64,000 bases of DNA from Candidatus Helarchaeota archaeon (GTDB lineage Archaea > Asgardarchaeota > Lokiarchaeia > Helarchaeales > RDOG01). Location of the stretch: positions 1,265,432-1,329,431 of the forward strand of contig JAHPZH010000001.1 in the NCBI GenBank assembly GCA_019058315.1, written 5' to 3'. Below, piece by piece: positions 26,123-63,029 of this stretch. Position numbers and translations under genes: made by a program. Under the pieces are notes generated by a model, which saw only the letters and a program-made list of their open reading frames with translations, did no database searches and was not told where the DNA came from. The first letter of the stretch is position 1; each line of letters starts with the position of its first letter.

Positions 26123-26671
26123 TTATTTAATGAGCTTTTCTGCAATTTTATAAAAGGCTTTTTCCACTTGTTCACCAGTCTTAGCGGATGTTTCGAAGAA
26201 CGCAATAGATTTTATAATTTTGGACATTTCTTCGCCTTTTTCAGTCGAAACAGGAGCTAGATCATCTTTTATTAAGCTCCTTGATAGCCCTTTCATCTCA
26301 CTTCTTAAGTCTACCTTGTTACCAACAAGAATTAAAGGAACATCCTCAATATCACGTAAATCTTGAACAAAGTCGGGAACTTCCAGGTATGTGCTGGGTT
26401 TAGTGACGTCATAAACTACTAGAGCAGCACTTGAGCCCCTATAATACATCTGTCTTACACGGCCGAACTTTTCCTGACCTGCAACATCCCAACATAACAG
26501 TTGAACATTTTTATTATCCACTTTAAGATCTTTAATTAATATATTCACACCGATTGTTTCTTTATATGATTCAGAGAATGAATTTTCCACATATTTTTTG
26601 ATTAAAGATGTCTTACCTACAGCAGGGGCGCCCACAAGAATTATTTTGAAATTATATGTTTCCTCACTCAT
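26123..26671 (-). CDS. Rab-like small GTPase
   Basis: GAPAVGKT, ETIGV, WDVAGQE, NKVD, ETSAKTG; no C-terminal Cys prenylation motif. Confidence 0.93.
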   Translation of the reverse strand: MSEETYNFKIILVGAPAVGKTSLIKKYVENSFSESYKETIGVNILIKDLKVDNKNVQLLCWDVAGQEKFGRVRQMYYRGSSAALVVYDVTKPSTYLEVPDFVQDLRDIEDVPLILVGNKVDLRSEMKGLSRSLIKDDLAPVSTEKGEEMSKIIKSIAFFETSAKTGEQVEKAFYKIAEKLIK

Positions 26672-26771
26672 TTTTCTACCATACCATATTTTTAGATTTA
26701 TTAATTAAATTATTAAAAAATCAGCCAATTCATAAAAAAATTTTTTGATTATTTCTTTTTAAATAAATTTA

Positions 26772-27269
26772 TCACTCAAATAAACTTGGATAAATTTTTT
26801 TTACCAAAGGATATTGTTCTTCTAAAGCCTTAAGCCATAGGTCTTTCTCCCACATCTCTTTTAATTCTTCATTATTCATTATATATTTTAACCTTTCTTT
26901 AAGTTGTTCACAAGTTGGTTTTGAGGGTATATATATCAATGTATTTAACTTTTTTCCATCAGAAAGAACAACTTTGCATGTAGTTCTTTGAAATAGATGT
27001 GGAACTCCCTCATAAAAGTCTAATTCTTTTAAACCATCAACTGAAATATCATATACCAACGCTTTTACTGTAGAATTTTTTTTAGTTGGAACTGCAAAAG
27101 GATAAAAAATACCCAATTCTTCAAATTTAGGATGATAAATTCTTACAAAATTCTCAATTGAACCAGTTCCAATTACTTTAAAAAGACTTTCACCAGATGC
27201 GGAACGAATTATAAAAGTACCATACCCTATCATTTTGACTTGCTTTTCGGACTCTTCACTTTTTTCCAT
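26772..27269 (-). CDS. Gamma-glutamylcyclotransferase/AIG2-like protein
   Basis: GYGT near the N-terminus; LDFYEG..LFQR. Confidence 0.75.
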   Translation of the reverse strand: MEKSEESEKQVKMIGYGTFIIRSASGESLFKVIGTGSIENFVRIYHPKFEELGIFYPFAVPTKKNSTVKALVYDISVDGLKELDFYEGVPHLFQRTTCKVVLSDGKKLNTLIYIPSKPTCEQLKERLKYIMNNEELKEMWEKDLWLKALEEQYPLVKKIYPSLFE

Positions 27270-27390
27270 TTATTATCGGTCCATAATAAATAATCATTAT
27301 TTTATCTTATTTTTGAATAATTACTATTAATAAATTAACTTGAAAAAATATTAAATGTTTGATTAAACTATTAAACTTATCATTTATAAG

Positions 27391-28257
27391 ATGGGACTTC
27401 TAATGAATGAAAAACGATTTACTAACTTAATAATAACCTATTTAATATTATGGGCAGTATCAGTATTTGTTCCAGATATTCTTTTTAGAAATTCTTCTAA
27501 TATTTTTGCCAAAATGATAAGAATTCAAGTCCCAGTTGCCGAATACGGAATTTTTTCTACTAATCTTCATCTAAGTACTTTATTTGAATTTATTCTACCA
27601 TTTGTAATCAATCCCATCTTCATCTTTCTTTTATATAGAGAGCTTAAAAGTTCTCCTCCACGAGATACAGATAATAGATTGACGATCTGGACTAAATATG
27701 GAATTATAAGTGCAATGTTGATTTTTTCTTTGGGCTATGGCTTTCATTATGTAGGAGATGCACTTGATACAATCATCCCATTTGATTGGATATCAATCAG
27801 TTTAATCACGGGTCATATAAATGAGGCCCTAATATTTATGTATGTGAAGATTCCAGCTTATTATTTTGATGAAGTGATAGCTCATAAATTAGTACAATTT
27901 GGACTATATGGTTCTTATTCAGGATTAGCTATTATACAATATTTGCATCCAATAGAAATTGAATTAAATGAATTAGAGTATTATGGAAAAGCTATTTTAG
28001 GTGGTGCCTTTGGGGGTGCAACAGCAATCGCATTAGCAGAAGGTCAATGTGCCTTTGAATTTTTATTTTTTAATCTCTTTACACTAATATTTATTGTAAT
28101 CCAAATAAAAAAATTAGAAATTAATCTGCGTAAGCTGCCTTTTTTAACTTTCTTCTTATTCTATTTATTAATAATGATAATTGTAACTCTAATTTGGGGC
28201 CTAGTAACTGGATTCAAACCCTTCTACCCATTCTTTTATCAAATGAGCGAATTATAA
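27391..28257 (+). CDS. Polytopic membrane protein, unknown function
   Basis: About 7 hydrophobic segments with polar HYVGD and DEVIAH motifs. Confidence 0.7.
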   Translation: MGLLMNEKRFTNLIITYLILWAVSVFVPDILFRNSSNIFAKMIRIQVPVAEYGIFSTNLHLSTLFEFILPFVINPIFIFLLYRELKSSPPRDTDNRLTIWTKYGIISAMLIFSLGYGFHYVGDALDTIIPFDWISISLITGHINEALIFMYVKIPAYYFDEVIAHKLVQFGLYGSYSGLAIIQYLHPIEIELNELEYYGKAILGGAFGGATAIALAEGQCAFEFLFFNLFTLIFIVIQIKKLEINLRKLPFLTFFLFYLLIMIIVTLIWGLVTGFKPFYPFFYQMSEL

Positions 28258-28376: not shown

Positions 28377-29153
28377 TTAATCCGCCCATCCAATTCTACG
28401 TTTAAACCAATCTGGCATAGCGAAACAGACATAGAAAATAATTGCGGCAGGAATAAATAACACTTGGATGGTTGAAAGCTCTCTTGAAATTGATGTAAAG
28501 ACAATAGCTATAACAAATAATAAAATACCAATTCCAAACCAAATTGAACGGTTACTATTAGCTTTATTTTCATTTCGGACTTTTTTAGCAAAATAGAAAA
28601 AAACTCCAACTGGAATCGCACCAAATGGTATTAAAAGAATTATACGTATTAAGATAATTTCAATAGAGAAGAAAATTGCAAAATCAACAATTTTAGTGTG
28701 TGGAGGACCTTGAATAATTGCCCAACTTTGAGTCCCTAGTAAAATACCTGATAATACTAATAAAAATATAAATATGACGTTAAAACGTTTAGGATAAGTA
28801 ACACGAATTGCAAATGCATTAACAAATAAATAACATATTTGAGCGGAAAGGTACATATTTATTGTTAAAAGTTCTCCTAGCCCTGGTAAACCCCAAGTTG
28901 CGTAACATAATCTTGAAAATACAACTAGTACATTACTAATTATTAAAAATATCATTCCTAATAAAAAGAGCAAAGTTTCTGTTAATTTGTCTCTTCTATA
29001 ATCCTTATATAATTCATAAATTATAAGAAATAAGAATAGCCCAGCAACACCATAGATCACAATTCCAAAAATTTCGAATAGTAGATTAGTAGTATTAAGA
29101 CCAAGTAGTTGATAAATAATATACTGAAAAGGATAATCCCACGACGCAACCAT
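28377..29153 (-). CDS. 7TM membrane protein, paralog 1 (MPDWFKRRIGW family)
   Basis: Seven hydrophobic segments; clear similarity to 52710-53486 and 62232-63029. Confidence 0.8.
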   Translation of the reverse strand: MVASWDYPFQYIIYQLLGLNTTNLLFEIFGIVIYGVAGLFLFLIIYELYKDYRRDKLTETLLFLLGMIFLIISNVLVVFSRLCYATWGLPGLGELLTINMYLSAQICYLFVNAFAIRVTYPKRFNVIFIFLLVLSGILLGTQSWAIIQGPPHTKIVDFAIFFSIEIILIRIILLIPFGAIPVGVFFYFAKKVRNENKANSNRSIWFGIGILLFVIAIVFTSISRELSTIQVLFIPAAIIFYVCFAMPDWFKRRIGWAD

Positions 29154-29387: not shown

Positions 29388-32300
29388 ATGGTCGATTTAT
29401 TAAATAATGAGCTTTCAGATCAGATTAATAATTTAAGCCACAAAGCCGAAGAGGAGGAATTAAAATACAATTGGCTTAAAGAAATTGAAATTTTAAAAAA
29501 AGCAGAAAAAATAAGTTCAGAGGAAAATTTCAAGTTAAAAAATGGAGAAATTAATTTTAAATTGGGCGAAATTTATTTAATGGCTGCAAATTTTGGAAAA
29601 ACTGAAGAAAATGTAATAATAAACTTTCAATTATCTAAGAATCATTTTCTAAAGAGTTTGGAGATATTTAAAGACCTTAATATTGAAGAAAAAATATATG
29701 CTACATTAGGTTTCATTGATTATCTAGATTACATATTAGAAACTGAAGCAATTGAAGAAAATATATTAGATAGGGCAAAAAATGAATTCAAAAAAGCGAA
29801 ATTAATTAATTTTAATAAAGGGGATTTAATTGAATCTTTAAAATCGGCAATTTTTGAAAGTAGATTCATAAATCTAATTATGTGTGAAAAACTTATTTGC
29901 ATAGACCCAAATATAGATTTCATCGAATTAGCTTCAGATTATGAAAATCTGGTTGCAAAAATTTGGGTAGATATTAAAAATCAACAACAAGATTTACCCG
30001 AATTTTATTACTATTTCTTTTTGAAAAATATCGTCCATTTTGTAACTTTAATTTTTTATTTCTTACCAGTTAAAGTATCAGTTAAAAGACAGCTTCTAAT
30101 CAATAATTTGAATATTATTTCGGAATTTATAGATAAAATCGAAAATTCAAAGAAAGAATTAAGTTCATTTTATGCTTATTCAATATGCTCTTCATTTAAC
30201 ATGGTATATTCAATATTTTATGTCGAAAGTCAATTTGAGCAGAAAAAATATTTAAAATCTGCACAAAAATGGTTACGAAAAGCAGAAATTTTATTACCTA
30301 ATATCACTGCGAATTCAGCATTGAGAACATTCTATTTCACACGATTTACAGTGTCTATTTTTTTAATTAGACTAGGTTTTTTTGCTAGAGATTTTAAACA
30401 TGTAATGGAAGATTTAAATGAATGTGTTAATCTACTTTTTATTCTTTTTCCCAGAATATTTGGTATAGTTATTACTTTCCTTTCTGTAAATGTTTTTTTA
30501 GCAGCAGCTAATAATCCTTCAGCTCCAGAAGTTCAAAGATTTGATTTTGCTGAAAAAGCTATGGATTTGATTAATTCTAAAATAAATAAATTTTCATTAC
30601 TAAACAATCCAAATTATAAACTCTTTACTATAACAAAAGATGTTCAACTATGTATGGCATTTGGGATATTAGGGGATTTAAGTAAAAATAAAGAAGAGAG
30701 AGATAGATATATTAAGAATTCAAAAACTCTTTTTGATAATTTGTCAAAATTTGATAATCCTTTTATAACAGACAATTATCTTTACTTAACTATAGTTCCT
30801 AGGATTGGAAAAACATTAGCTAGTCATTCAAAAGAGAAAAATAACAAAGTATATTATGACCAAAAGGTAATAGATATATTATTACGTGGTAGAGAAATGG
30901 CAATGGCTTATTTCGATGTCGAGAACCAATTTTTAATTGGAGAAACATATTTTGAAATGGCAACACTAACCAATGATGATAAAATACTAAAAAAAGCTTA
31001 TTCATCATATATGAATACCATTAAATTCTGCAAAGATAAAGGGTATTTTAATTTAGTGGGAACTGCATATATTAATCTTGCCCAAATTGAAGATAGATTA
31101 GAAAATTATTTATCTGCATCAGATAATTATAAAAAAGCCATAGATTCATTCGATCAGGCAATTATGACTCTTACATACACAAAATTGAGTAAAAAGATTG
31201 AGAAGCTAAAAAAATATGTAGAAGCCTGGAGTATAATTGAAATAGCTAAATCATACCATGTAAAAGAGGAACATCATGAAGCACAATTAAATTATGAGCA
31301 AGCTAGCAGAATATTAAATGATTTACGTGATTATAAATTCGAATCACCTTTTTATTCTGCATGGGGTGTGCTAGAAAAAGCAGAAGATTTAAGTAAAATA
31401 AATAAACATCAAGAAGCTGCAGCTACATATTTAGTATCAAAAAATAAATTCCACGATGCTTTAGAAACCCTCAATTCTTACTTGAAAAAAAGAAAATCTC
31501 TTGAGGATATAGATCGAATTTCCAAGTTAACTCAAGTTGCAATGATACGTGAAACATATTGCGACGCTAGATACGAGATTGAAACCGCAAGAATAGAAAG
31601 TAGAAAGGGAAATCATTTAATCGCAGCTGAACTTTATAATAAAGCAAGTGTCGCTTTTGAAAATATATGTCAAAAATTTAAAATTCGACATGAAAGGGAT
31701 GAGTTATCAGCGATTTACTATCTCTGTAAGGCTTGGGAGAAGATGGAACAAGCAGAAGGAGAACAAAAACCAAATCTTTATGATGTGGCCTCACAACTCT
31801 TTGAAAAGGCGAGTAAAATATTTCCGGAAAGTCGTATGAAAAAATTATCTATAGGGAATTCACTTTTTTGTTCCGCTCTTGAACAAGGGAGTTACTTTGA
31901 TAAAACCACTGAATTGGATGAAAAGATTAAACATTATAAAAAAATAAAGATGTATTTACGAGAATCGTCAAAAAACTATCAATTGGGTGGATTCAAACAG
32001 GATGCACAATGGGCTTTAGCAACTTCTACCTTTTTTGACGGTATATGGCATTTAATTCAATCAGATAATGAGATGAATTTCTCTAAAAGGAATGAATTTT
32101 TGAATATAGCAATAAATTATCTAAAGAATGCTTTACAAATCTTTGAAAAAGCGGGTTATGAACAAAAAAGGGATGAAATTCTAAATTATTTAGAAATGAT
32201 TAAAGACGAAAAAGAAATTCTTGCTTCTGCACTTAATATTATAGAAAAACCTGAAATTTCGAAAAGCACCGTTGGAATTTCAGCACCATCGTGTCCCATT

Positions 32301-32756
32301 GAAATAAGTTCATCAGTAAATATAGAAGAAATGCAAGAAACGGATATGAAAACAGAATCTGAATTAAATTGGGCGAAAAGAATTCATCATATTTATTTTC
32401 TTTTACCAAATGGTGTCTGTATTTATGACCAATCCTTTAAAAAAGAAAAAGAGATTGAACCACATTTAGTTACTGGATCTTTAGCTGGTATTTCATCTTT
32501 AATTCAAGAGTTAACACAAAATAAAACCAAAATAAAAATCGTTGAACAAGAAGAAATGACAATCCTCCTCGAGCATGGAGAAAATTTGAGTGTTGCTTTA
32601 ATAACTGAAGAAAATCTAATCACCTTACAAAATAAATTAACACAATTAATTAATGATGTAGAAGATTTCTATCAAGAAGAATTGGTTGCATTTTCAGGAG
32701 ATATAAGCGTTTTTTCAAAAATTGGGAAATTTATTCAAAAGATATTTGAAAGCTAA
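29388..32756 (+). CDS. Large TPR-like solenoid protein with C-terminal longin/roadblock-like domain, copy 1
   Basis: Helical repeats (LAQIEDRLENYLSASDNYKKA); last ~125 aa show the beta-beta-alpha-beta-beta-beta-alpha-alpha pattern (IYFLLPNGVCIY...LVTGSLAGISSLIQE). Confidence 0.8.
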   Translation: MVDLLNNELSDQINNLSHKAEEEELKYNWLKEIEILKKAEKISSEENFKLKNGEINFKLGEIYLMAANFGKTEENVIINFQLSKNHFLKSLEIFKDLNIEEKIYATLGFIDYLDYILETEAIEENILDRAKNEFKKAKLINFNKGDLIESLKSAIFESRFINLIMCEKLICIDPNIDFIELASDYENLVAKIWVDIKNQQQDLPEFYYYFFLKNIVHFVTLIFYFLPVKVSVKRQLLINNLNIISEFIDKIENSKKELSSFYAYSICSSFNMVYSIFYVESQFEQKKYLKSAQKWLRKAEILLPNITANSALRTFYFTRFTVSIFLIRLGFFARDFKHVMEDLNECVNLLFILFPRIFGIVITFLSVNVFLAAANNPSAPEVQRFDFAEKAMDLINSKINKFSLLNNPNYKLFTITKDVQLCMAFGILGDLSKNKEERDRYIKNSKTLFDNLSKFDNPFITDNYLYLTIVPRIGKTLASHSKEKNNKVYYDQKVIDILLRGREMAMAYFDVENQFLIGETYFEMATLTNDDKILKKAYSSYMNTIKFCKDKGYFNLVGTAYINLAQIEDRLENYLSASDNYKKAIDSFDQAIMTLTYTKLSKKIEKLKKYVEAWSIIEIAKSYHVKEEHHEAQLNYEQASRILNDLRDYKFESPFYSAWGVLEKAEDLSKINKHQEAAATYLVSKNKFHDALETLNSYLKKRKSLEDIDRISKLTQVAMIRETYCDARYEIETARIESRKGNHLIAAELYNKASVAFENICQKFKIRHERDELSAIYYLCKAWEKMEQAEGEQKPNLYDVASQLFEKASKIFPESRMKKLSIGNSLFCSALEQGSYFDKTTELDEKIKHYKKIKMYLRESSKNYQLGGFKQDAQWALATSTFFDGIWHLIQSDNEMNFSKRNEFLNIAINYLKNALQIFEKAGYEQKRDEILNYLEMIKDEKEILASALNIIEKPEISKSTVGISAPSCPIEISSSVNIEEMQETDMKTESELNWAKRIHHIYFLLPNGVCIYDQSFKKEKEIEPHLVTGSLAGISSLIQELTQNKTKIKIVEQEEMTILLEHGENLSVALITEENLITLQNKLTQLINDVEDFYQEELVAFSGDISVFSKIGKFIQKIFES

Positions 32757-32960: not shown

Positions 32961-33875
32961 TTGGTCTTAGATCCACTATCTGAATCATATAATTTCCAAA
33001 GTTCCCAGTTCCTTTCTGATCCCGAAATTGAACCTAAGATGTTGGAAATGATTAATTCGGCCACCGAAGAACTTCTTTTAATTTCTCCTTGGATTTATAA
33101 AGACGTTATTTTGGAATCATTAATAATAGCTCGTAATAGAGGAATTATAGCTAAAATTATTGTCCGTAAGTTTAAGATTAATCGGGATAACATGAATCAT
33201 CTTATTTCAATTCAAAAATTGGATATGAATGGGATTCAAATTGCATTTACAGATAATATTCATGCAAAAATTTTGATAAAAGATGGGAAGGAACTCCTAC
33301 TCTCTTCTAAAAATATGATTGATTCTAATGCAATTGATATGGGAATTTGGAACAGGATTAAGAACGAAGTTAAAAAAGCTAGAGATGAGTTTTACTTGTT
33401 ATACAATCAACGATTTTATGATTCAAACTACATTGATTTTTCCAGTTTAAATCTTAACCTCGATACTTTTAATGATGATATTGTAATGGATATTTATGGA
33501 AAAAAGTTTGGGAAACTGTTTGGGAGGTTTAAAATCGTAATGTATGAGGGAAATAAAATTTTTGTTTCTAAAGAAAATATAATTTTCTGTGTTCATGCTA
33601 TAGCTAATAAGATATTGGAGAATCTTGGAATAAAATTTAAAAGAATTTCAACAGATCAGCTATGGAGGCTAAGGATTGATGGTCATTGGCACCTAATTTC
33701 TGAATATCCAGGTTCTATAAAAGAAGAACATATCATGAAAGCTAAATTATTACTAAATTATGACAGAAAATTGCATTTATTTTGGTCAAATGATGATGAT
33801 AGACAGTGTGTCGTTATTACTGATGGAAAAATAGCTTTATTTATCAATAATATTAATTATTTACACATTTTTTAA
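32961..33875 (+). CDS. Phospholipase D-like (single HKD) nuclease-domain protein
   Basis: LISPWI, HAKILIKD (HxKxxxxD), LLSSKN. Confidence 0.8.
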   Translation: MVLDPLSESYNFQSSQFLSDPEIEPKMLEMINSATEELLLISPWIYKDVILESLIIARNRGIIAKIIVRKFKINRDNMNHLISIQKLDMNGIQIAFTDNIHAKILIKDGKELLLSSKNMIDSNAIDMGIWNRIKNEVKKARDEFYLLYNQRFYDSNYIDFSSLNLNLDTFNDDIVMDIYGKKFGKLFGRFKIVMYEGNKIFVSKENIIFCVHAIANKILENLGIKFKRISTDQLWRLRIDGHWHLISEYPGSIKEEHIMKAKLLLNYDRKLHLFWSNDDDRQCVVITDGKIALFINNINYLHIF

Positions 33876-35168: not shown

Positions 35169-35347
35169 TGCATCTTCCTAATTATATCTAGAAAAAATTA
35201 GTATTTAAACTTAGTACGGAGTAGTTGATAACTAATAGCATTCTAATACTTTCTTTATCAGTTCTAATTTTTTAAAAAGAAAATACGATCCTTTTATAAT
35301 TTATTCTTACCTAATAAATAAGGAAATCTAGATGGGGAAATAAATTG

Positions 35348-38300
35348 ATGACACATCCAAATAAAAAAGAAATTTTAGAGCAAATTAATGATTTATTTCT
35401 TCAAACAGAAAATGAAATATTGAAATATAATTGGATCGGGGCAATAGAACTTTTAAAAAAAGTCGAAAAGATTATTTTAAATGAAAAATTAAGCGTAAAA
35501 GAAATTGAGTGTGAATTATATTATAAATTGGGGGAATTATACCAAGTAAATGCAAATTTCGAAAAAAAAGAAGATGATGTCTTAAAAAATTTTCAATTAT
35601 CTATTCTAAATTTTCAAAAAGCATACGATATATATGAAAAATTAGAAAATGAAGAAAAAATTAATGAACTTTCAGGTTCTATTAATTTCATAACATATTT
35701 ATTGGGATCTAATGAAGGAAACGAAGAATCTCTATTAAAAAATGCGAAGGACTATTTCAACAGAGCAAAACAAATTAATTTAAAAAAAAGTAATTTTCCT
35801 GATTTCTTAAAAATGGCTTTATTAGAAAGTAGGGCATTAAATTTGCTCCTTGGAGAAAAAATTATACGTATTGATGAAAAAACAGATTCCATAGCATTAG
35901 CTTCAGAATATGAAAATTTAATGGCAGATATTTGGGAAAAAATTAAAAAAGGGCAAAATTTTCCCGAAATTTGTCACTATCATTTTTTTACAAGCACTAT
36001 GGAGTTCTGTCAATGGGCATTATCTTATTTACCTGCTGAAAATTCAATAAATAAGCAACATATTATGAACAATTATGATAGAATAAAAGAATTTATAGAT
36101 ATCTTTGAAAAAAAATCAAATGCACCCAGTTTATTTGTAGCTTATACATTCATCGCCTGGTTTAATACGATTCTTGCTTCTTATTTTGTAGATAGTCAAT
36201 TTGAGCAAAAAAAACATTTAAAAATTGCAGAAAAATGGCTTAAAAAAGCAGACCAGCTATTAACTAAAAATAATACTAATAAAGCTTTGGTTTTATTTTA
36301 TTATACCCGCTTCGCCGTTTCTATACTACTAATTTCTCTAGGTTTTTTTGCAAAAGATTTTAAACATGTTATGGGAGATTTAGACGAATGTACTAATTTA
36401 TTATACGTTTATTTTCCTAGAATATTACTTGCCCATTCGGTATTTTATGCAGCATCAACATTTGCAGTTGGTGCTTTAAGTCTTTCAATTCCGGATGTTA
36501 ATACACGCATCAATCTTGCTAATATTGCTTTGGATTTACTTGAATCTGCAATTCCGAAGATTTCAATCATAACAAATCCAGATTATAAAATATATGATTT
36601 ATTTAGAAAGGGTGTCTTATGTGTAATCAATGCGTTATTAGGAGATTTAATTAAAGATAGAAAAGAAAGCTCTACTCATTTACAAATAGCATTAAATCTT
36701 TTCAATGAAATATCGAAATTTAGCAATCCAAAAATAGAAAACACATTTCTTCATTTTAATTATTTATTTGGTGTAGCTAGAACGGGAATTATATTTGCCA
36801 AAATTTCAGCAAATGAATCCGAAAAGGTTAGTTATTACTTAAAGGCAATAGATTTACTTTTAAAGAGCAAAAAGATATCAATTTCACTGTTCAGCATTGA
36901 AAATCTATTTTTAATAGGCGATCTTTATTATGAAGTAGGAGAACTAACAAATGATGATAAGATATTTAAAAATTCTTACTCATCGTATATAGAAGCAATA
37001 GAATATTGTAAAGATAAGGGTTATTCCAATTTGGTAGGTTCAGGTTATGTAAAACTTGCACAAATCGAGGATAGACTTGGAAATTATCTTTCAGCAGCAG
37101 AGAATTATAAAAAAGCAATTAATTCATTTAATAAAGCAATTTTTACCCTTACTTATTCTAGGGCGAGTAAAAAAATTGAGAAATTAAAAAATTATATAGA
37201 AGCTTGGGAACTTATAGAATCCGCAAAATCGTTTCATTTACAAGAGGATCATAACAAAGCACAGCTTAACTATGAACATGCAAGTCAAATATTAAAAGAT
37301 ATTCGTGAATATAATTTCGAGTCTCCTTTTTATTCCGCATGGGCACTTTTGGAAAAAGCAGAGTCATTAAGTAAAATAAATAAGCATCAGGAAGCTGCTG
37401 CAACTTATATTGTGAGTAAAGGAAATTTTGAAGATGCAGTTGAAACTTTTAATTCATACATAAGTAAAAGAAAATCTTCTAAAGAGACTGAGAGAATTTC
37501 AAAATTAATTCAAGTAGCAAAAATTAGAATAACTTATTGTTCAGCACGTTATCATATTGAAACTGCAAGAGTTGAAAGTAAGAATGGAAACCATTTAATC
37601 GCTTCTGAACTTTATAATAAAGCTGGTACTCTTTTTTATAAGATATGCCAATCATTTAGATTAAAAAGAGAAAAAGATGAATTAACTGCTATATATTACT
37701 TATGTAAAGCTTGGGAAAATATGGAACGGGCGGATCAAGATACAACACTTTATGCAATTGCTTCAGGATTATTTGAAAAAGCTAGCAACATTTTTCCAGA
37801 AAGTAGAATGAAAAAATTGTCCACTGGAAATTCTCTATATTGCTCAGCCTTACATTATGGTGCTTTATTTGATGAATCCACTGAATTAGAAAAGAAGATT
37901 AATTATTATAAAAGAATAAAAATGAATTTAAGGGAAGCAGCAAAAAATTATAAAGTAGGTGGCTTCGATCAAGATGCACAATGGGCCTTAGGAACGTCAA
38001 CATTCTTTGATGGTATCTGGCATTTAATACAAGCAGATAATGAGATAGATTTTACTAAAAAGAACCAATATTTAAATATCGCGACAAATTATATGAATAA
38101 TTCATTAACTATCTTTAAAGAAGCGGAATATGAGCAAAAGCAGGAGGAAATAAGGAATTATCTCGAAATGATTAGTGATGAGAAATCCATATTAACCTCC
38201 GCTTTGAATGTGATTGAAAAGCCAGAAATTTCTGCGAGTAGCATCGGTATATCAGCTCCTGCTAGTCCTGCTGAGATAAGCTCTTCAGTGAATATCGAGG

Positions 38301-46401: not shown

Positions 46402-46414
46402 TATTGGTGATTTA

Positions 46415-47062: not shown

Positions 47063-47083
47063 AATACACAAAAGAGGATATTC

Positions 47084-51231: not shown

Positions 51232-51269
51232 AGAAATTCTTTATTCTTTTTTTAACAGTTGGATAGATA

Positions 51270-51433
51270 AAAAATCTTAAAATTTTATTAAAATATGGTG
51301 AATATGTCACTATAGCACTTATTGTAGAAGAAAATTTTAAAATCCTCTATTCAATATTATTCTACCAAAATGGAAAGGTGATATAGAGGTGTTTTTATAA
51401 GTAAAAATAATGGTTGAAAAAATTTTTACATAA
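51270..51433 (+). pseudogene. Decayed longin-domain 3' fragment paralogous to the downstream gene
   Basis: KNLKILLKYGEYVTIALIVEENFKIL, then deletion/frameshift, then ILPKWKGDIEVFL*VKIMVEKIFT*; compare KDVQILFKYGKFITAALIAVEDLEIL...ILPKWKGDLEIFSPVKVMVERIFT*. Confidence 0.8.
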
Positions 51434-51484
51434 ATTAATTCTTATTTAAAAGCAATAATTAGATCTAATAGGTGAGATTGGATA

Positions 51485-52570
51485 ATGGTATTTGAATTTT
51501 TACCTAATGTAATTATTATATTAAACATAGGAATTAATTTTATCGAAGTTGCATTAGAATTACAGATATTTATACTTTTTATATCAAATGCCAGAAAAGG
51601 TCTGAGTGAGAAAGGTATTCATGGACCATTGAATATAAGATTCGGTTTATCATCTCTATTTCTTACTTTAGGTCGTATTTCTTTTATTATATGGGATTAT
51701 ATTATTCAAAATTCTTTAGCTCGAATAACTGCTTGGATTTTTACATTTCTTGGTATAATTTTTATAGGGTTTGTTTTCTATCGTGTTTTTGACAAATATT
51801 TACCAAAACTAAAATTATACTTAACATTATCTGTGTTAATAGGAATAGCAATATTTTTCATTTATTTTATTTTTATTTTCTTATTAAAAATGACTTTACT
51901 CATCTATTTTATATTTGCAGTATTAACCGGTCTGCTTGTTTTTCCTTTAATCTATGCTTTTACTAAATGTTTTATAGAAATTGGGAGTGAATTCAGAAAA
52001 TATATTGTTGCTATAATGATTGGATTGTTTGCTTCAGTTACAGGTTATTTGATCGCTTCAATGCATCCGTTTATCAGCGTTGAACATAGTATGATTGTAA
52101 AATTCATAGGGCATATGATATTTGTATCAGGAATTATTTTTTTTGCTGTAGGTTTTTGGAGTCTTCCTTCACTTAAAGAATTGGAATGGAGAGACAAAAT
52201 AAAACATTTATATATAATACTTGAGGGGGGAGTAAATATTTATGACCATTCTTTTATAATCGAAGATACTTTTCAAAGTGATCTGATGGCTGGAGGTATT
52301 TCAGGAATAACTACCTTAATGCAAGAATTAACAAAAAGTAAGGAAAGAGCAGAAGTTATAAGACAGAAAGATGTTCAAATTTTATTTAAATATGGAAAAT
52401 TTATCACTGCAGCATTAATTGCTGTTGAAGATTTGGAAATTCTTCACTTTAAATTAAAAAAGTTAGTAGATGAATTTGAAATATTATTTCAATATATTCT
52501 ACCCAAATGGAAAGGAGATTTAGAAATATTTTCACCAGTCAAAGTAATGGTTGAGAGGATTTTTACATAA
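51485..52570 (+). CDS. 7TM membrane protein fused to a C-terminal longin/roadblock-like domain
   Basis: Seven hydrophobic segments, then ELEWRDKIKHLYIILEGGVNIY...LMAGGISGITTLMQE, matching the C-termini of the TPR-like proteins. Confidence 0.8.
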   Translation: MVFEFLPNVIIILNIGINFIEVALELQIFILFISNARKGLSEKGIHGPLNIRFGLSSLFLTLGRISFIIWDYIIQNSLARITAWIFTFLGIIFIGFVFYRVFDKYLPKLKLYLTLSVLIGIAIFFIYFIFIFLLKMTLLIYFIFAVLTGLLVFPLIYAFTKCFIEIGSEFRKYIVAIMIGLFASVTGYLIASMHPFISVEHSMIVKFIGHMIFVSGIIFFAVGFWSLPSLKELEWRDKIKHLYIILEGGVNIYDHSFIIEDTFQSDLMAGGISGITTLMQELTKSKERAEVIRQKDVQILFKYGKFITAALIAVEDLEILHFKLKKLVDEFEILFQYILPKWKGDLEIFSPVKVMVERIFT

Positions 52571-52709
52571 TTATATACTTTTAAACTTCAAGCGGAGGAA
52601 GCGGTGAAACAATAGTATCTTCACATTTTTCAACTGTGGGATAATTCCATCATTCTGGAGGTATCTGAAATGTCGATGAAATATGATATCGAAACTGGCT
52701 ATGAAGATT

Positions 52710-53486
52710 TCAATCAGGCCATCCAATTCTGCGTTTAAACCAATCTGGCATAGAAAAGCAGATATAATAAATAATTGCAGATACAATATATAAGACTTGG
52801 ATGATTCTAAACTCAGCTGTAACTGATGTAATAAGAACAGGTATAGCGAAAAATAAGATGCCTGTCCCTAACCATATGGATAGGTTACTTTGAGGTCTAT
52901 TTTCTTCCCGAATTTTTACAGCAAAATAATAGAAAACCCCTATTGGAATCACCGCAGTTGTACCAACACTGAGGAAACGAACTACTTGAATTTCAAAAGA
53001 ATAAACTGTTACAAAATTAAGGACATTAGAATACGGAGGGCCTTGAATAACTGCCCAGGATTGAGTTCCTATATAAATTGCTGATATAACTAACAAAATA
53101 GCTAATACAATTTTATATCGTTTTGGAAAAGTCATACGAATTGCAAATAAATTAACACATAAGTATGTAAATTGAGCTGGAAATAGAGTAATTATTGTTA
53201 AAAGTTCGCCTAGTCCAGGTAAACCAAAGGTTGAATAACATAAAGATTGTAAGGTCAAAAGAACATTAGCTGGGATTAGCGAGATCATCCCTAGTAAAAA
53301 TAATAACGTCTCAACAGATTCTCTTTTTTTGTAATTTTTATATAATCTATAAATTATGCCAGCTACTAAAATCCCAGCTGTTAGACTTATTGAGAGCATA
53401 AAAAGTTCAAACAATTGACTAGAAAGAGAGCTCCCAACAATCATATTCGACATATACTGAAGAGAGTATTCCCAAGAAACAGCCAT
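52710..53486 (-). CDS. 7TM membrane protein, paralog 2
   Basis: Shares GLPGLGELLTI, QGPP and MPDWFKRRIGW with 28377-29153. Confidence 0.8.
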   Translation of the reverse strand: MAVSWEYSLQYMSNMIVGSSLSSQLFELFMLSISLTAGILVAGIIYRLYKNYKKRESVETLLFLLGMISLIPANVLLTLQSLCYSTFGLPGLGELLTIITLFPAQFTYLCVNLFAIRMTFPKRYKIVLAILLVISAIYIGTQSWAVIQGPPYSNVLNFVTVYSFEIQVVRFLSVGTTAVIPIGVFYYFAVKIREENRPQSNLSIWLGTGILFFAIPVLITSVTAEFRIIQVLYIVSAIIYYICFSMPDWFKRRIGWPD

Positions 53487-53758
53487 AATTTTTTCCCTCT
53501 GTGTTTTTTAATTTTATTTTAAATGGTAATCCTATAATTCCAAAACTATCCATTACTTTTTACTAACTCATATAAATATTTTTTAGAAATGAAAAAATTG
53601 ATTTTGAGACAAATAAATAGAGATTATAGTTGATTATTGAATAAGGCTGTATATCTATGAAAAATATAAATCTTGAGGGTAAAATCTCACCCATCGTAAC
53701 AGTATATAATAGAAATAGAAACTACATCTAACTATATTTAGATTTTAATGAATGAGAC

Positions 53759-54952
53759 TTAATGTTTTAGATTTAATGGAGGTAAGGGTGGTACTTTATC
53801 ATTCCAGTTCTCTGAAACTGGATAATCCCACCATTCGGGAGGAATTTTTGAATAATCACCATATTTTTTTAGACCTCTTACAAAAGCCCTAATATTTTTT
53901 GATGGTACTTTGATATGCTCCGGCTGGGCATAAAAATAGGCACCAAATCCACCCTTTTTCGTACCAAGGTTTCTCATCATATGCCACACTTCACGTTCAC
54001 ATTCTTCTGGAGTCCCTTGGGTATATATTGATTGGATATTTACACATCCCCAGAACATAATCTTTCCACGAAACGGTTTCAAATCAGTATAACCACTCAT
54101 ACGAGGACTATCAAATTCTAATGCATCTAGCTTCCAATCAATAAAGTGTGGAACTAACTGATCGATTTTTCCACAAGAGTGTAAGTGAAATTCACAACCT
54201 AGATCATGTGCAGCTTCAAATAATGGACGGTAAAGAGGTTCATAGAACTCTTTAAACATTTTTAAGCTCATAAATGGACTATTTTGAGTTCCAAGGTCGT
54301 CAGCTATTATAAAACCATGGGGTTTTCCTCCAAGTTTTACCCACATTTTCATATTTTTTATGAACCAATCTTTTAGATAGTTAAGAAGGTATTTCACTTT
54401 ATCTGGATTAAGAATATGATCGGCCATGAAATTTTCAAATCCTCTAATATAGGTTGCAACTGAAAATGGTGCATGGGGGCCTAATAAGACCATTCGATAT
54501 TTATTTTTTCCAAATTCTTTAGTCATATTTATGAATAAGGAATATCGACTTTTATCTTCAGGATCGGGTGTATAACGTTCTAAATATTCATCCAATTTAT
54601 CCCAATTAGGAAGAGATGGTCTAGCAGGGTGTCCAATAGTTTGCATAGTTCCTTGTTGCCAAATACACCCCCATTCATCTATCTCTTCGTGTGGTAGTTT
54701 CCACCACTCTTTATATTTTGGATCCTTAGCCCATTCTGGAGGATTTTCTTGCCATTTTTTTGTTAATACTGAATAAGAAAAAGAATATGGAAACAATCCT
54801 TTTTCATCTTCGGCAAAACCCGGTCTCCAATTCTTTGATGGCATGGTCACTAGAGGCCATACATCGCTATTAGATTTTCCATAATTCATTATAGGAACTT
54901 TATCTGGACCTGAAAAATTTATAGCGGCTTTAACTCTTTCTAATGAATTCAT
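53759..54952 (-). CDS. MtaA/CmuA/UroD-family protein
   Basis: MNSLERVKAA..PDKVP, DEWGCIW, ADDLGTQ, HLHSCG. Confidence 0.85.
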   Translation of the reverse strand: MNSLERVKAAINFSGPDKVPIMNYGKSNSDVWPLVTMPSKNWRPGFAEDEKGLFPYSFSYSVLTKKWQENPPEWAKDPKYKEWWKLPHEEIDEWGCIWQQGTMQTIGHPARPSLPNWDKLDEYLERYTPDPEDKSRYSLFINMTKEFGKNKYRMVLLGPHAPFSVATYIRGFENFMADHILNPDKVKYLLNYLKDWFIKNMKMWVKLGGKPHGFIIADDLGTQNSPFMSLKMFKEFYEPLYRPLFEAAHDLGCEFHLHSCGKIDQLVPHFIDWKLDALEFDSPRMSGYTDLKPFRGKIMFWGCVNIQSIYTQGTPEECEREVWHMMRNLGTKKGGFGAYFYAQPEHIKVPSKNIRAFVRGLKKYGDYSKIPPEWWDYPVSENWNDKVPPLPPLNLKH

Positions 54953-54985
54953 ACAAATTCCAAATGTTTATTAATTTATTTTAAT

Positions 54986-56182
54986 CTATTCATTTTTTGG
55001 GATTAGAGGAAGTGGTGGGACAATATTATCTTTCCACACTTCAATTGTTGGTTGAACCCACCATTGAGGGGGTATTTTTGAATAATCCCCATATTTTTTA
55101 AGACCTTTTGTAAATGCTCTTACGTTTGCTGGAGGAACGCCAAGTTGTTCTGGCTCTGGATAAATATAGGCACCAAATCCGCCATCCTTGGTTCCAAGAT
55201 TTCGCATCATATGCCAGACTTCTCTTTCACAATCTTCAGGTGTCCCTTTGGGATATATTGTTTGGATATTAATACAACCCCAAAACATAATTTTTCCTCG
55301 GTATGGTTTTAAATCGGTATATCCGCTCATACGTGGGCTATCAAATTCAAAAGCATCTAGCTTCCAGTCTATAAAGTAAGGAAGTAGTTTATCTATTTTA
55401 CCACAGGTATGTTGGTGAAATTCACATCCAAGATCATGAGCAGTTTCATATAAAGTGTGGAATAATGGTTTATACAATTTTTCAAACATTTTTGGTTTAA
55501 TAAATGGACCTTGTTGGGTTCCTAAATCTTCAAATATCAAGAATCCATGGGGTTCACCACCGTATTTAACCCAACATTTCATGTTTTTAACAAACCAATC
55601 CTTAAGATAATTAAAGAGATATTCAAGCTTCTCGGGATGAATTGCATGATCAATCATAAAATTTTCAAAACCTCGCATATTAGACGCGATCCATTGTGGG
55701 GCTAAGGGTCCTAAAAGTGCCATTCTATATTGATTTTTACCAAATTGTTTACTTAATTTTAGAAAAAAAGAATATCGGCTCTTATCCTCGGGATCGGGAG
55801 TATAGCGATCTAAATATTCTTCAAGTTTAGACCAATCAGGTAGTGAAGGTCTTCCAGGGTGCCCCATGGTTTTTATAGTTCCATGTTCCCAAATGCATCC
55901 CCATTCATCTATTTCTTGGTGTGGTTTTTTCCACCAATTTTCATATTTCGGATCTTTTGCCCATTCTGGCATATTTTCATTCCATTTTTTTAAAAATTCA
56001 GGGAATGCATAATTATATGGAAAAAGGCCTTCTTCATCCTTTGCATAACCCGGTTTCCAATCTTCAGAAGGCATAGTAATGAGGGGAAACACATCACTAT
56101 TTGGCATTCCAAAATTCATTATTGGCACTTTATCGGGTCCTTCAAATTTCAATGCAGCTTTTACCCTTTCTATTGAATTCAT
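54986..56182 (-). CDS. MtaA/CmuA/UroD-family protein (tandem duplicate)
   Basis: Near co-linear paralog of 53759-54952; HQHTCG. Confidence 0.85.
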   Translation of the reverse strand: MNSIERVKAALKFEGPDKVPIMNFGMPNSDVFPLITMPSEDWKPGYAKDEEGLFPYNYAFPEFLKKWNENMPEWAKDPKYENWWKKPHQEIDEWGCIWEHGTIKTMGHPGRPSLPDWSKLEEYLDRYTPDPEDKSRYSFFLKLSKQFGKNQYRMALLGPLAPQWIASNMRGFENFMIDHAIHPEKLEYLFNYLKDWFVKNMKCWVKYGGEPHGFLIFEDLGTQQGPFIKPKMFEKLYKPLFHTLYETAHDLGCEFHQHTCGKIDKLLPYFIDWKLDAFEFDSPRMSGYTDLKPYRGKIMFWGCINIQTIYPKGTPEDCEREVWHMMRNLGTKDGGFGAYIYPEPEQLGVPPANVRAFTKGLKKYGDYSKIPPQWWVQPTIEVWKDNIVPPLPLIPKNE

Positions 56183-56206
56183 TCAATCTCCAACCAAGAT
56201 TTATAT

Positions 56207-57667
56207 CTAAATATACCTTTTTTTAACCCAATGGGGATTATCACTAGTATCAAGATACCACCTAAGTAATTGTTCTTTTAAATCTAATTTAATTTTCAAA
56301 AAATTATCTTCATCTATTAAGTTGAATAATTCTTGAGGATCATTTTTTAAATTATATAATTCTTCTTTAGAACCATTTCGAATAACTAGTTTCCATTTAT
56401 TAGTTCTAATCATAGCAGAACGGGTAACAGTAGATCGATCTTCAATAGGAATATTAGTTTTGTCGTAATAAATTCCTGCTAATGGTGTCTCTGGAGATTT
56501 GACAACACCTTCAAAAGCTTGTGGTTCACGTGGATTATAACCACCTTCAGAAAATACTGCTTTTCTATGGATTTCCTCTTCTCCTTTTAATAAAGGAATT
56601 ATTGATTTACCAAAATGAGTATAAGGGGTATTAACCTGAGCAATTTCTAATATTGTTGGAAAGATATCTATTGATTCAACTAATTGATTGAATATTTCAT
56701 TTTTAGGTTTAATATCAGGAATTTTACAAACAAAGGGAATATTAACAAGGCAATCTTGAAAAGCATTTGCCCATTTTTCTGTTAAGCCATAATTACCCGC
56801 ATAATCTCCATGGTCGGCAGTAAAGAATATAGCTGAATTATTAAAAGCTCCTATTTCTCTTAATTTGCTTAGAATTTGTCCAAATTGATAATCAACTCTT
56901 GATACCATCCCATAATAAGTTGCAATTATTTCTCTAAAATCACTTTCACTTAATTTATTCAATCCATACCGTTCATGCATTAAACGCATAAATTCTGGTT
57001 TATCTTCTAATTTTGATGGTATTAGAGCTGGAACTTTGGATCTATCATACATCGAAAAATAAGGCTCTTCAACGTTATACGGCGGATGTGGAAATGCTAA
57101 AGCAATATAAAGGCAAAAAGGGCTATTTGGCTTTGACTTTGAATCAAGATATTCTAATGCTTTTTTAATAACAATAGAATCAAAATCATAAGCTTGTTCT
57201 TCAGAACGTTTTCCATAATAAAATGATTTTCTCAAATGGTGGTCTATAGGATAGGGATTAGTTTTCATTTTAATTTTATATAATTCCTTAAAAATTGAAA
57301 TTCGTTTAGAAAAACTTCCTTTTATTGCATCTCTATTAATTAGATCATTTCTTCCAACCCAGACAACTTCGTAGCCGTTATTTTTCAATAATCTAAATAA
57401 ATTTTCTTCCTCTGGACGTAGTAATTGATATAAGCTCCTATGACCATTTGTGTGAGGATATAATCCAGTAAACATACAACATCTAGATGGACCACAAACG
57501 GGATTTACGGTGAAATATTGAGTAAATGCTGCACCTTCTTTTGTCAAACTATCGATATTCGGAGTTTTTATTACTTTATTATGCGTTCCTCCTAAAGAAA
57601 CAGTGTCGCCCCGCATCTCATCGGCAATAAAGATAACGATATTGGGAAGTTTTTTTATCTCTGCCAT
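56207..57667 (-). CDS. Cys-type sulfatase
   Basis: PNIVIFIADE, CGPSR (CxPxR formylglycine motif), FTADHGD, ELYNLKNDPQE. Confidence 0.92.
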   Translation of the reverse strand: MAEIKKLPNIVIFIADEMRGDTVSLGGTHNKVIKTPNIDSLTKEGAAFTQYFTVNPVCGPSRCCMFTGLYPHTNGHRSLYQLLRPEEENLFRLLKNNGYEVVWVGRNDLINRDAIKGSFSKRISIFKELYKIKMKTNPYPIDHHLRKSFYYGKRSEEQAYDFDSIVIKKALEYLDSKSKPNSPFCLYIALAFPHPPYNVEEPYFSMYDRSKVPALIPSKLEDKPEFMRLMHERYGLNKLSESDFREIIATYYGMVSRVDYQFGQILSKLREIGAFNNSAIFFTADHGDYAGNYGLTEKWANAFQDCLVNIPFVCKIPDIKPKNEIFNQLVESIDIFPTILEIAQVNTPYTHFGKSIIPLLKGEEEIHRKAVFSEGGYNPREPQAFEGVVKSPETPLAGIYYDKTNIPIEDRSTVTRSAMIRTNKWKLVIRNGSKEELYNLKNDPQELFNLIDEDNFLKIKLDLKEQLLRWYLDTSDNPHWVKKRYI

Positions 57668-61505: not shown

Positions 61506-61571
61506 AATTATAAGCTGTTGGGCTATTTAAGCTATTGTAGGAACTAATATATGTTTTAATATAAAACTAGA

Positions 61572-62024
61572 TTAAAATTTCGACATCCAATTACTTATAT
61601 TTTTATCTATTTCCTCTTCAAAAATATCTTTTAAAACTTCATGAAATCCTTGAAATTCTTGAGTATTATACGGTAATTTTTTAACTTGATGTTCGACCAA
61701 ATAGCTACCGTATTTTATGATGAATTGTTTTTGAATTTCTTCGATTTTCTTTTTTAAATATTTTTCTTTAATTTTACCCGAGCTTCTTAAAACAATAAAA
61801 ATATGGTATTCTTCTAGACTAGAAATTAATAATTTTGAACCTCCTAACTCGATTCTTTTGATTTTCTCTCCTTTGCTAATTGTTTCTAAAAAGGTCTGAA
61901 TACTGCTTAAGAACCCTGAGAATAGAGTCTCATCTACTGTTGTTTTCCCCTCTCTTCCTATAGAATGGTTGAATAAGCAGACTCCCGAGTCCTCGATTAT
62001 GTATACCTCGTCAATTTTTTCCAA
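61572..62024 (-). CDS. Stand-alone longin/roadblock-like domain protein
   Basis: VYIIEDSGVCLF...DETLFSGFLSSIQTFLETI...KIKRIELGGSKLLI pattern. Confidence 0.75.
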   Translation of the reverse strand: MEKIDEVYIIEDSGVCLFNHSIGREGKTTVDETLFSGFLSSIQTFLETISKGEKIKRIELGGSKLLISSLEEYHIFIVLRSSGKIKEKYLKKKIEEIQKQFIIKYGSYLVEHQVKKLPYNTQEFQGFHEVLKDIFEEEIDKNISNWMSKF

Positions 62025-62231
62025 TTTAGACCCATATTTTATTTTTAATTTAGAAATACCTTTTTATTGTTTATATTCATTTTTGTCTTAATTTAGCTCT
62101 AATACATTTTATAATTCTTAATTTCTTCTTTCTTTGATATAAACTTGATATGAATTATTAATTTATCCTTTGAGGTATCACAGAAAAAATTTAAATGATG
62201 GTAGTTATCTAAATTATAAAATTTCAAATTT

Positions 62232-63029
62232 GTGGGATATAAAATGTCGAGATTAACTTATGGATTTGAATTTACATGGAATAAATTAATGAATATATCT
62301 ATCTTAAATAATCCTATGGAAGTAGTTGGACTAGTATTTGTTCTGATATTGGAAGTTATAATGGTTTTATTAGTCTATCGAGCTTTTACGAGTTATAGGG
62401 AAACTAAAATGTTTGGAACTCTTTTATGGTTTTTAGCTTTTGTTACAATATTTGTCGGTGTTATTTTCTTAATTCTTGAAAAAGTTGCTTACTCGACTTT
62501 AGGTAATATGGGACTGGGAGACCTTATGACAATACTAGCATTGACCCTATCTGGTGCAGGCATTGTTTGCTTTGATATATTTTCTTTTCATACTGCATAT
62601 CCTGACTATGAAAAGGTACTATCAGTATTAGTAGCAGCACTAGCAGCAACATATATTGGTGCATTATCTTTTGCTATAGCGACTGGAAGTCCAAATTCAG
62701 AAATTATAAATAATGAACCAGTATATAGTCTAGGGTTTGATATAATTGCATACATTACACTTATTCCTCTATTGACGATAGCACCTCTGGTTTTTTTCTA
62801 TTTTTATTGGAGAAATCGTGATAAAGAAAGAGGTCAAGCACTAAGAGGTCTATGGATCGGTATCGCGTTCTCCTTTTTTGCAGTCGGGTATATTTCTGAA
62901 GCTGCCCCTTACTTTCCTGCGGGACTAGCAGCACCTCTTCGCATTTTACATCTTATTGCAGCGACAATACTATATATCTGCTTAACTATGCCAGATTGGT
63001 TCAAAAACAGAATCGGATGGATTGATTAA
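62232..63029 (+). CDS. 7TM membrane protein, paralog 3
   Basis: Seven hydrophobic segments; YSTLGNMGLGDL; ends YICLTMPDWFKNRIGWID; start may be ATG 62244. Confidence 0.8.
   Translation: MGYKMSRLTYGFEFTWNKLMNISILNNPMEVVGLVFVLILEVIMVLLVYRAFTSYRETKMFGTLLWFLAFVTIFVGVIFLILEKVAYSTLGNMGLGDLMTILALTLSGAGIVCFDIFSFHTAYPDYEKVLSVLVAALAATYIGALSFAIATGSPNSEIINNEPVYSLGFDIIAYITLIPLLTIAPLVFFYFYWRNRDKERGQALRGLWIGIAFSFFAVGYISEAAPYFPAGLAAPLRILHLIAATILYICLTMPDWFKNRIGWID

Follow-up and report, generated by a model that had tools for sequence, protein, structure and literature searches.

A candidate two-part seven-transmembrane and longin membrane module in Lokiarchaeia-class Asgard archaea

Described sensor and longin systems and the archaeal locus

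At the lysosome, polytopic membrane proteins engage longin/roadblock platforms that control small GTPases, as in the LYCHOS (GPR155)-GATOR1-Rag and SLC38A9-Ragulator-Rag systems. Here we describe, in a 64,000-nucleotide stretch of Asgard archaeal DNA (hereafter the window; G000:C3:1265432-1329431), genes for seven-transmembrane (7TM) proteins and longin domains, some of which probably belong to a two-part membrane module found in the Lokiarchaeia class of Asgard archaea, in which a 7TM protein with the fold of a G-protein-coupled receptor (GPCR) is joined to a cytosolic longin, either fused in one chain or split between two genes. The module would resemble the lysosomal systems in its order, from membrane sensor to longin/roadblock platform to GTPase, and the 7TM model described below matches the GPCR-like 7TM domain of LYCHOS itself at Z 12.6 (chains 8wr3_B and 9lhq_A). 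It differs from them in that the archaeal 7TM protein has no sequence homology to theirs, in that its partner is a single longin with a predicted docking tail instead of a multisubunit GTPase-activating protein (GAP) or scaffold, and in that the archaeal side has no Rag heterodimer, TOR kinase, or lysosome.

Animal GPCRs and G-alpha offer a second comparison. The helix arrangement is alike, the C-terminal helix of the archaeal partner is predicted to lie between intracellular loops (ICL) 1 and 2 and the turn from transmembrane helix (TM) 5 through ICL3 to TM6, and many receptors would again share few transducers; however, there is no detectable sequence relationship, the archaeal genome has no detected G-alpha, and what docks is a longin instead of a GTPase. 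Prokaryotic 7TM receptors (HisKA_7TM, 7TMR-DISM, and the Escherichia coli DgcT/CdgI-type 7TM-GGDEF proteins) share a likeness of fold and a 7TM input followed by a cytoplasmic output, whereas the archaeal output is a longin or nothing, not a kinase or cyclase, and the split form uses a separate gene. On the longin side, MglA-MglB, TRAPP (Bet5/Trs23-Ypt1), and Mon1-Ccz1-Ypt7 belong to the same fold class, and the linkage of longin and GTPase genes in the archaeal genome resembles the mglA-mglB operon, but none of them is joined to a 7TM protein, either by fusion or by gene adjacency. By analogy with them, dimerization of the archaeal longins with guanine nucleotide exchange factor (GEF) or GAP activity is a candidate function only.

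The expansion of longin/roadblock proteins in Asgard archaea, longin-GTPase fusions, and NPRL2-like longin-two-component fusions are on record (10.1101/2020.10.19.343400; PMC10933270; Klinger 2016 via PMC4917890). The GTPase genes of MK-D1 are generally not in operons with longin genes, and genome layout rarely helps to link Asgard GTPases (PMC10933270). We found no description of a 7TM-longin fusion or gene pair in the searchable literature, which excluded Klinger et al. 2016 itself. Asgard genomes encode about a hundred small GTPases and as many longin/roadblock proteins, with almost nothing that ties them to an input or to the membrane; a conserved 7TM-longin module is a concrete entry point, with a defined pair, a predicted interface of ~14 residues, and candidate GTPases from sister operons.

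The window lies in a 5.79-Mb genome (G000; 12 contigs, ~30% GC, 94% complete). The nearest homologs of its proteins come from metagenome-assembled genomes named Promethearchaeota, Helarchaeota, or Hodarchaeota, and matching DNA occurs in sediment metagenomes; we therefore assign it to an Asgard archaeon of a Lokiarchaeia-type class. Simple calling of the longest open reading frames (ORFs) gave 5,090 genes, including ~97 small GTPases (1 gene in 52), about 30 7TM-only genes, and 145 longin-like-domain genes, compared with 41 longin-domain genes in the literature for Lokiarchaeum. These 145 genes comprise 48 TM-longin fusions, 21 stand-alone longins of <210 amino acids (aa), 16 giant solenoid-longins of at least 950 aa, 35 N-terminal longins with an extension, and 25 genes of other C-terminal or internal architecture. 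Because the 7TM, longin, and GTPase families are so large in this genome, adjacency alone is weak evidence of a link.

Split and fused 7TM-longin genes

Naming genes by their first coordinate, we found the best-supported pair of the window in the stand-alone longin gene 61572 (61572-62024, minus strand, TTG start, 150 aa) and its membrane partner, the 7TM-only gene 62232 (62232-63029, plus strand, 265 aa; identified by a family profile match). They diverge from a 207-bp spacer (62025-62231), which presumably holds both promoters. The product of 62232 is a divergent paralog of two 258-aa proteins, encoded by 28377 (28377-29153, minus strand; divergent from the solenoid-longin gene 29388 across a 234-bp spacer) and 52710 (52710-53486, minus strand; convergent with the 7TM-longin fusion 51485 across a 139-bp gap). 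Relative to 28377, the other two window paralogs are 52% and 28% identical, and all three share the C-terminal ending MPDWFK(R/N)RIGW.D. The fusion (51485-52570, plus strand, 361 aa) has seven TM helices followed by a longin domain at residues 235 to 361. The ~128-aa C-termini of 29388 and 51485 are homologous to the whole of 61572. An earlier note on this DNA had described the same genes, and its coordinates and orientations were all confirmed; it had also paired each 7TM gene with its longin neighbor.

We then determined how often the two families adjoin each other across G000, using a wider 7TM profile that was built only from database representatives, and is thus not circular, and that added more distant 7TM-only genes (20 loci in all). 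Six of the 20 loci lay beside a longin gene of any kind, against 0.98 expected (p ~1e-4). The signal belongs to the stand-alone longins, which adjoined 7TM-only genes at 4/20 loci against 0.16 expected (25-fold; p ~5e-5), because neither the giant solenoid-longins (1/15 loci; p 0.12) nor the TM-longin fusions (1/36 loci; p 0.26) were above chance. The pairing claimed by the earlier note was therefore supported for 62232/61572 but not for 28377/29388 and 52710/51485. Each of the three extra distant genes gained with the wider profile adjoins a stand-alone longin: two pairs are head-to-head, C11:333481(+) with C11:332890(-) across a 178-bp spacer and C11:351046(-) with C11:352044(+) across a 213-bp spacer, and in the third, C3:263365(+) is followed by C3:263827(+) after 15 bp. 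The head-to-head layout of 61572/62232 thus recurs in the C11 pairs, and it is found in other genomes as well, with spacers of 173 to 350 bp.

The wider 7TM family is present in 96 of the 161 genomes of the class and in 24 of its 30 genera. Searching other genomes with a profile of stand-alone longins, we found an immediate 7TM-family neighbor at 12 of 29 loci (plus 2 weak cases), either head-to-head or as a 7TM-then-longin operon, which is the gene order of the fusions; starting from the 7TM side, a head-to-head stand-alone longin was found at 4 of 28 loci. Further pairs were recovered by coordinates (G123:C110, G124:C109, G125:C31, G126:C48, G205:C328, G237:C24, G239:C49, G244:C279, G249:C28, and G268:C19). 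The pairs span about 10 genera and 4 families, a recurrence well above anything that chance would produce in genomes carrying only a few 7TM genes of this kind. Nearly all paired stand-alone longins, which measure 137 to 157 aa in these archaea, carry a short, amphipathic C-terminal tail whose last residue, or one close to it, is W or F (for example, ..ALW, ..AFW, ..FWNGF, ..KGLW, and ..NWMSKF). In 61572 the tail comprises residues 137 to 150, EEEIDKNISNWMSKF, and it is kept in orthologs that are 59 to 74% identical. At four loci of one genus (L057, L058, L059, and L080), the stand-alone longin is preceded by two ORFs of ~100 to 113 aa with overlapping stop and start codons, each with about three TM helices and a match to the TM1-TM2 region of the 7TM profile; they may be a split or half-size membrane partner.

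An exhaustive search with the 7TM-only profile, covering 1.84 billion representatives, recovered 78 clusters of the family. Among them, six full-length proteins of 364 to 384 aa (P0087, P0094, P0095, P0097, P0098, and P0106) matched nearly the whole 7TM region (E 4e-14 to 9e-6), and their C-termini matched the longin profile (E 1e-33 to 1e-37). One truncated protein and one fragment likewise join the 7TM family to a longin domain. Because these database relatives carry a C-terminal longin, we regard the 7TM-only proteins as a 7TM-longin fusion family in split form. A result obtained with a narrower profile, which had first been read as a refutation, was overturned by the exhaustive search and the wider profile. 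Together, the database fusions and the conserved split pair bear out the functional link that the earlier note had drawn between 7TM and longin proteins, and we consider it quite likely that the two are functionally coupled. Accordingly, the window holds one split (61572/62232) and one fused (51485) instance of a conserved Asgard 7TM-longin module.

The whole architecture of 51485 matches clusters of 313 and 65 Asgard proteins. Its TM part has no detectable homology to the 7TM-only family. An hhalign comparison of the 7TM-only family with the TM parts of the 48 TM-longin fusions of G000 reached a probability of 80% (over 96 columns) at best and <21% for all others. Three 369-aa fusions of G000 appeared as relatives of the 7TM-only family only with a profile that contained sequences from the same genome, and they were not used. 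The 7TM tail MPDWFKRRIGW also resembles the fusion linker ELEWPKKIRHLY; the profile alignment ends before the tail, and we make no claim from this resemblance.

Predicted folds and contact of the two partners

The 7TM-only proteins stop 13 residues beyond TM7 and have no fused enzymatic output domain. The predicted structure of 28377, based on 20 homologs, is confident (predicted local distance difference test [pLDDT] score, 86.7; predicted template modeling score [pTM], 0.82) and consists of seven long helices; a short hairpin separates helix 4 from helix 5, and helix 7 is followed by a further, short one. When this model was aligned to 48,161 chains with VIA-align, all top 50 matches were GPCR 7TM domains (Z 15.9 to 12.1; root mean square deviation [rmsd] of ~4 Å over 206 to 239 residues), the best being ADGRL3 (Z 15.9; rmsd 3.8 Å over 212 residues). 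The margin in favor of a GPCR fold is small, because helical bundles often reach Z ~13 to 14 by arrangement alone, and a Foldseek search of the PDB returned GPCRs only weakly (E 0.01 to 0.1). Against predicted structures, the model matched 7TM sensor modules fused to HisKA, GGDEF, or EAL domains with TM-scores of 0.65 to 0.72, as well as Asgard hypothetical proteins, and a search by features gave a weak HisKA_7TM lead (score 0.87). No Pfam family matched the window 7TM-only proteins; no GPCR family did so at E up to 1, PF16927 (HisKA_7TM) gave no match, and the sole related match was 7TM-7TMR_HD at E 0.11. The modeling supports a 7TM bundle with a GPCR-like helix arrangement, in agreement with the 7TM region of the earlier note. 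Judged by sequence, these proteins appear to have neither the family membership nor the heterotrimeric G-protein coupling that defines GPCRs as a functional class.

The predicted structure of 51485 is of moderate confidence (pLDDT, 72) and shows seven TM helices and a C-terminal domain. The elements of this domain follow the order strand-strand-helix-strand-strand-strand-helix-helix (strands at 239-246, 251-256, 291-294, 297-303, and 307-313; helices at 265-284, 318-334, and 346-360), which is the topology of the longin alpha-beta-alpha sandwich. Its best Foldseek matches in the PDB were the longins of AP sigma/mu, zeta/delta-COP, BLOC-3, MON1-CCZ1, and Fuzzy-Inturned (E 9e-4 to 1e-2; TM-score by target of at most 0.67 over ~125 residues), with the roadblock proteins MglB and LAMTOR ranking below them. 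No Pfam longin family exceeded its gathering cutoff, the best being Sybindin on 61572 (24.1 bits versus 25; E 4e-5), and the others, including Intu_longin_1 and Fuz_longin_1, were also below threshold (E 3e-4 to 0.06); these weak matches, and one to TRAPPC1, point the same way as the structure. Structure prediction and Foldseek thus confirm a longin fold for the modeled C-terminal domain of the 29388/51485/61572 family, as the earlier note had proposed, as opposed to a fold outside the longin/roadblock class.

Complex prediction for 62232 with 61572, with alignments supplied for both proteins, gave an ipSAE interface score of 0.64 (0.64, 0.64, and 0.62 in the individual runs), a pass, while the best of three controls reached 0.00. 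The runs shared at least 97% of contacts, with a partner pLDDT of at least 72. Only the tail of 61572 (residues 137 to 150) contacts 62232 in the predicted complex, and the interface on 62232 is formed by residues 54-63, 120-124, 187-206, and 251, corresponding to ICL1, ICL2, the TM5-ICL3-TM6 turn, and the post-TM7 helix; the same positions are the best-conserved columns of the 7TM family. The tail is found only on stand-alone longins and is absent from 29388 and 51485; the surface predicted to make contact therefore differs from the "shared longin output" on which the earlier note had expected membrane and soluble inputs to converge. Four of the database fusions, P0087, P0094, P0097, and P0098, end in short extensions with a near-terminal aromatic residue (..YEDIFS, ..KEKSRF, ..DRAIFR, and ..YEKIF, respectively), and these might dock in cis in the way that the stand-alone longin tail is predicted to dock in trans.

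From this model we propose that the stand-alone longin would dock its amphipathic, W/F-ended C-terminal tail into the cytoplasmic cleft of the 7TM protein, between ICL1, ICL2, and TM5-ICL3-TM6; that coupling works through such docking is nearly evenly balanced, falling slightly on the side of doubt. A longin so held at the membrane could then provide a platform, as GEF, GAP, or recruiter, to one of the numerous small GTPases, a step that we put forward with some reservation. The 7TM family would in this way relay or localize a signal to GTPases without heterotrimeric G proteins. Many 7TM receptors or anchors would share few longin adaptors, an arrangement that fits the expanded 7TM family, most copies of which have no longin neighbor.

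Several observations weigh against such a module. The complex is a model, and since our own alignments were used, the calibration of its pass mark (attained in 58 of 80 solved complexes and in 2 of 110 mismatched pairs) is only rough. Solved structures include many GPCR complexes in which a C-terminal helix occupies the cytoplasmic cleft, so the predictor may have reproduced the docking pose from its likeness to them. The amphipathic tail could equally be a membrane anchor, and the assumed topology of the 7TM protein (N-terminus out) rests on the positive-inside rule only. As to gene order, 14 of the 20 7TM-only loci of G000 have no longin neighbor, and for the narrowly defined family in six related genomes, a longin gene lay within 7 kb at 1 of 17 loci and was absent from the other 16. 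Orthologs of 61572 (59 to 63% identical) in two other assemblies (L001 and L002) have no 7TM neighbor, which makes the 61572/62232 pair lineage-specific; with the other pairs taken as given, a single additional chance adjacency would have a probability of roughly 0.2. The related genomes in the pair survey are not independent, and simple longest-ORF gene calls underlie the adjacency counts.

Small GTPases, competing explanations, and neighboring genes

A longin gene lies beside 22 of the 83 GTPase loci of G000, against 3.8 expected (~6-fold; 0 of 5,000 permutations), in contrast to the layout described for MK-D1 (PMC10933270). By class, a GTPase adjoins 5/20 stand-alone longins (p 4e-4), 5/36 7TM-longin fusions (p 0.005), and 6/19 N-terminal longins with an extension (p <1e-4), and seven genes of this genome are longin-GTPase fusions. 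C3:220873, which is the paralog closest to 61572 and has the same tail (..NISSWLKSI), overlaps the GTPase gene C3:220322 at its stop codon, and the best 61572-profile matches in G123 and G124 directly follow a GTPase gene. In line with the earlier note, longin genes are thus enriched beside small GTPases, and no G-alpha was found above the cutoff in G000 (best 25.6 bits versus 48.8; genome 94% complete). That the 7TM-longin module itself feeds a small GTPase is plausible, at rather less than an even chance.

The earlier note had also given a role to the Ras/Rab-like GTPase of the window, 26123 (26123-26671, minus strand, 182 aa; Pfam Ras, E 6e-50). It has the G1-G5 motifs of a Ras-superfamily G domain (GAPAVGKT, DVAGQE, NKVD, and SAK), and its C-terminus, ...KIAEKLIK, has no Cys for prenylation. 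Its end lies 1.7 kb from 28377 and three genes from 29388. Because two unrelated genes, a GGACT-like gene and another membrane protein, intervene before 28377 and 1 gene in 52 is a small GTPase, a specific link of 26123 to the 7TM-longin module is not supported. Encoded at 27391-28257, between 26123 and 28377, is a polytopic membrane protein of 288 aa without a Pfam match. At L116 (G196:C129:3001-11733), positions 4462-6508 hold a same-strand cluster of two small GTPase genes, encoding 181 and 176 aa, and a 251-aa 7TM-family gene; the gaps measure 137 and 79 bp, and the cluster has no longin gene. The "GTPase" beside a 7TM-longin operon at L115 (G276) is a 601-aa protein with a weak match (E 2e-4) and was not counted as a small GTPase.

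In the most specific form of the proposed mechanism, GPCR-fold 7TM receptors would signal to Ras-superfamily GTPases via a longin adaptor whose tail plugs the cleft like the alpha-5 helix of G-alpha; we hold this to be unlikely, if worth stating. If true, the receptor-longin-GTPase relay would be pre-eukaryotic and a possible forerunner of the LYCHOS-GATOR1-Rag and SLC38A9-Ragulator-Rag logic, and receptor-to-GTPase membrane signaling would predate eukaryotes and need no heterotrimeric G proteins.

A rival reading, likewise unlikely, is that the 7TM protein is not a receptor but a membrane anchor, tethering a longin platform and its GTPase as LAMTOR1 or SLC38A9 does for Ragulator-Rag. The pairing, fusion, and docking evidence applies to an anchor equally. 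Two further points speak for it, namely that no ligand-binding domain or pocket was identified in the 7TM protein and that Asgard GTPases have no prenylation motifs (26123 ends in AEKLIK), so that another route to the membrane is needed. The conservation pattern argues the other way: across 86 sequences, the cytoplasmic halves, loops, and tail are conserved (0.46) and the outer half is variable (0.34; Mann-Whitney p 7e-10). Under the narrow definition, G000 has 26 close 7TM-only paralogs in 16 loci, many of them in tandem arrays, which is the pattern of diversifying sensors and not of a single anchor, and in structure the 7TM protein comes closest to sensor modules and GPCRs.

Less probable again is mere coincidence of expanded families, by which all three window adjacencies would be accidental and without functional meaning. 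For the stand-alone class this is contradicted by the 25-fold excess of adjacencies in G000, the recurrence of the pair in about 10 genera, the existence of 7TM relatives as longin fusions, and the passing of controls by the 62232+61572 prediction, and we regard it as refuted there. It stands for 28377/29388 and 52710/51485. Under the narrow definition, 3 of 16 7TM-only loci were beside a longin gene against 0.79 expected (p ~0.04, post hoc), all three of them in the window; the giant-longin and fusion adjacencies are not above chance; and the orthologous loci of 61572 and 51485 lack a 7TM gene, those of 51485 (L050 and L051) having no 7TM-only neighbor, which also counts against the earlier pairing of 52710 with 51485. 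These two adjacencies are compatible with chance and not individually supported; 28377 and 52710 are orphan paralogs whose longin neighbors reflect chance or the tendency of expanded families to cluster regionally. Two of the three window adjacencies and the nearby GTPase 26123 are thus unfit as evidence, and the earlier interpretation as a whole is partly supported.

Longin domains serve in SNARE, AP sigma, and signal recognition particle receptor contexts. That the 7TM protein has some other primary function (transport, catalysis, or membrane remodeling), with the longin as a chaperone or sorting factor and no small GTPase involved, would fit the structures most similar to the longin domain (AP sigma/mu and COPI zeta/delta, which are not GEFs), the varied metabolic genes around 7TM-only loci, and the uroporphyrinogen decarboxylase (URO-D), radical-SAM, and sulfatase neighbors kept by 51485 orthologs, but it is very improbable given the strong adjacency and fusion of longins and GTPases in G000, the place of the closest 61572 paralog in a GTPase operon, and the lack of any transporter or enzyme family matching the 7TM protein.

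No single neighbor family recurs beside the 7TM-only loci of G000, which are surrounded by varied metabolic genes. That the ~480-aa genes beside 7TM loci are sulfatases was considered and discarded (0/16 loci). In L050 and L051, the orthologs of 51485 (72% and 62% identical, respectively) have retained neighbors of the URO-D-type methyltransferase, radical-SAM/SPASM, and sulfatase families; in the window (42459-57667), the 7TM-only gene 52710 interrupts this arrangement, lying between 51485 and the URO-D genes. Functionally, 51485 may be part of that glycan/demethylation locus. Elsewhere in G000, at C5:1284350-1298550, a 14-kb super-locus has all three families side by side, with six TM-longin fusions in tandem, two small GTPases, a gene of 378 aa, and a tandem array of five 7TM-only genes.

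The solenoid-longin 29388 (29388-32756, plus strand, 1122 aa) combines a probable helical solenoid with a C-terminal longin at residues 995 to 1122 (lng profile, E 9e-38). Two paralogs follow on the same strand, 35345-38758 (1137 aa; lng profile, E 3e-34; weak TPR_12 and MIT matches) and 38979-42383 (1134 aa; lng profile, E 1e-36). A helical solenoid is likely from their sequences, and no Pfam TPR family exceeded its cutoff in any of the three (TPR_12 at 26.0 bits, in 29388, and 25.2 bits versus 30.1). Residues 210 to 392 of these ~1130-aa proteins include one to three stretches of strong hydrophobicity (at 210-233 and 343-376 in 29388), defined by a mean above 1.6 in a 19-residue Kyte-Doolittle window and peaking at 1.6 to 2.4. 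Most solenoid-longin paralogs carry such stretches and may be membrane embedded rather than soluble. The "soluble TPR" input of the earlier note is not sustained, with the TPR below Pfam cutoffs and most paralogs strongly hydrophobic in places. Within a 2.3-kb break of the paralog array lies a phospholipase D-like gene (PLDc_2, E 4e-9) at 32961-33875.

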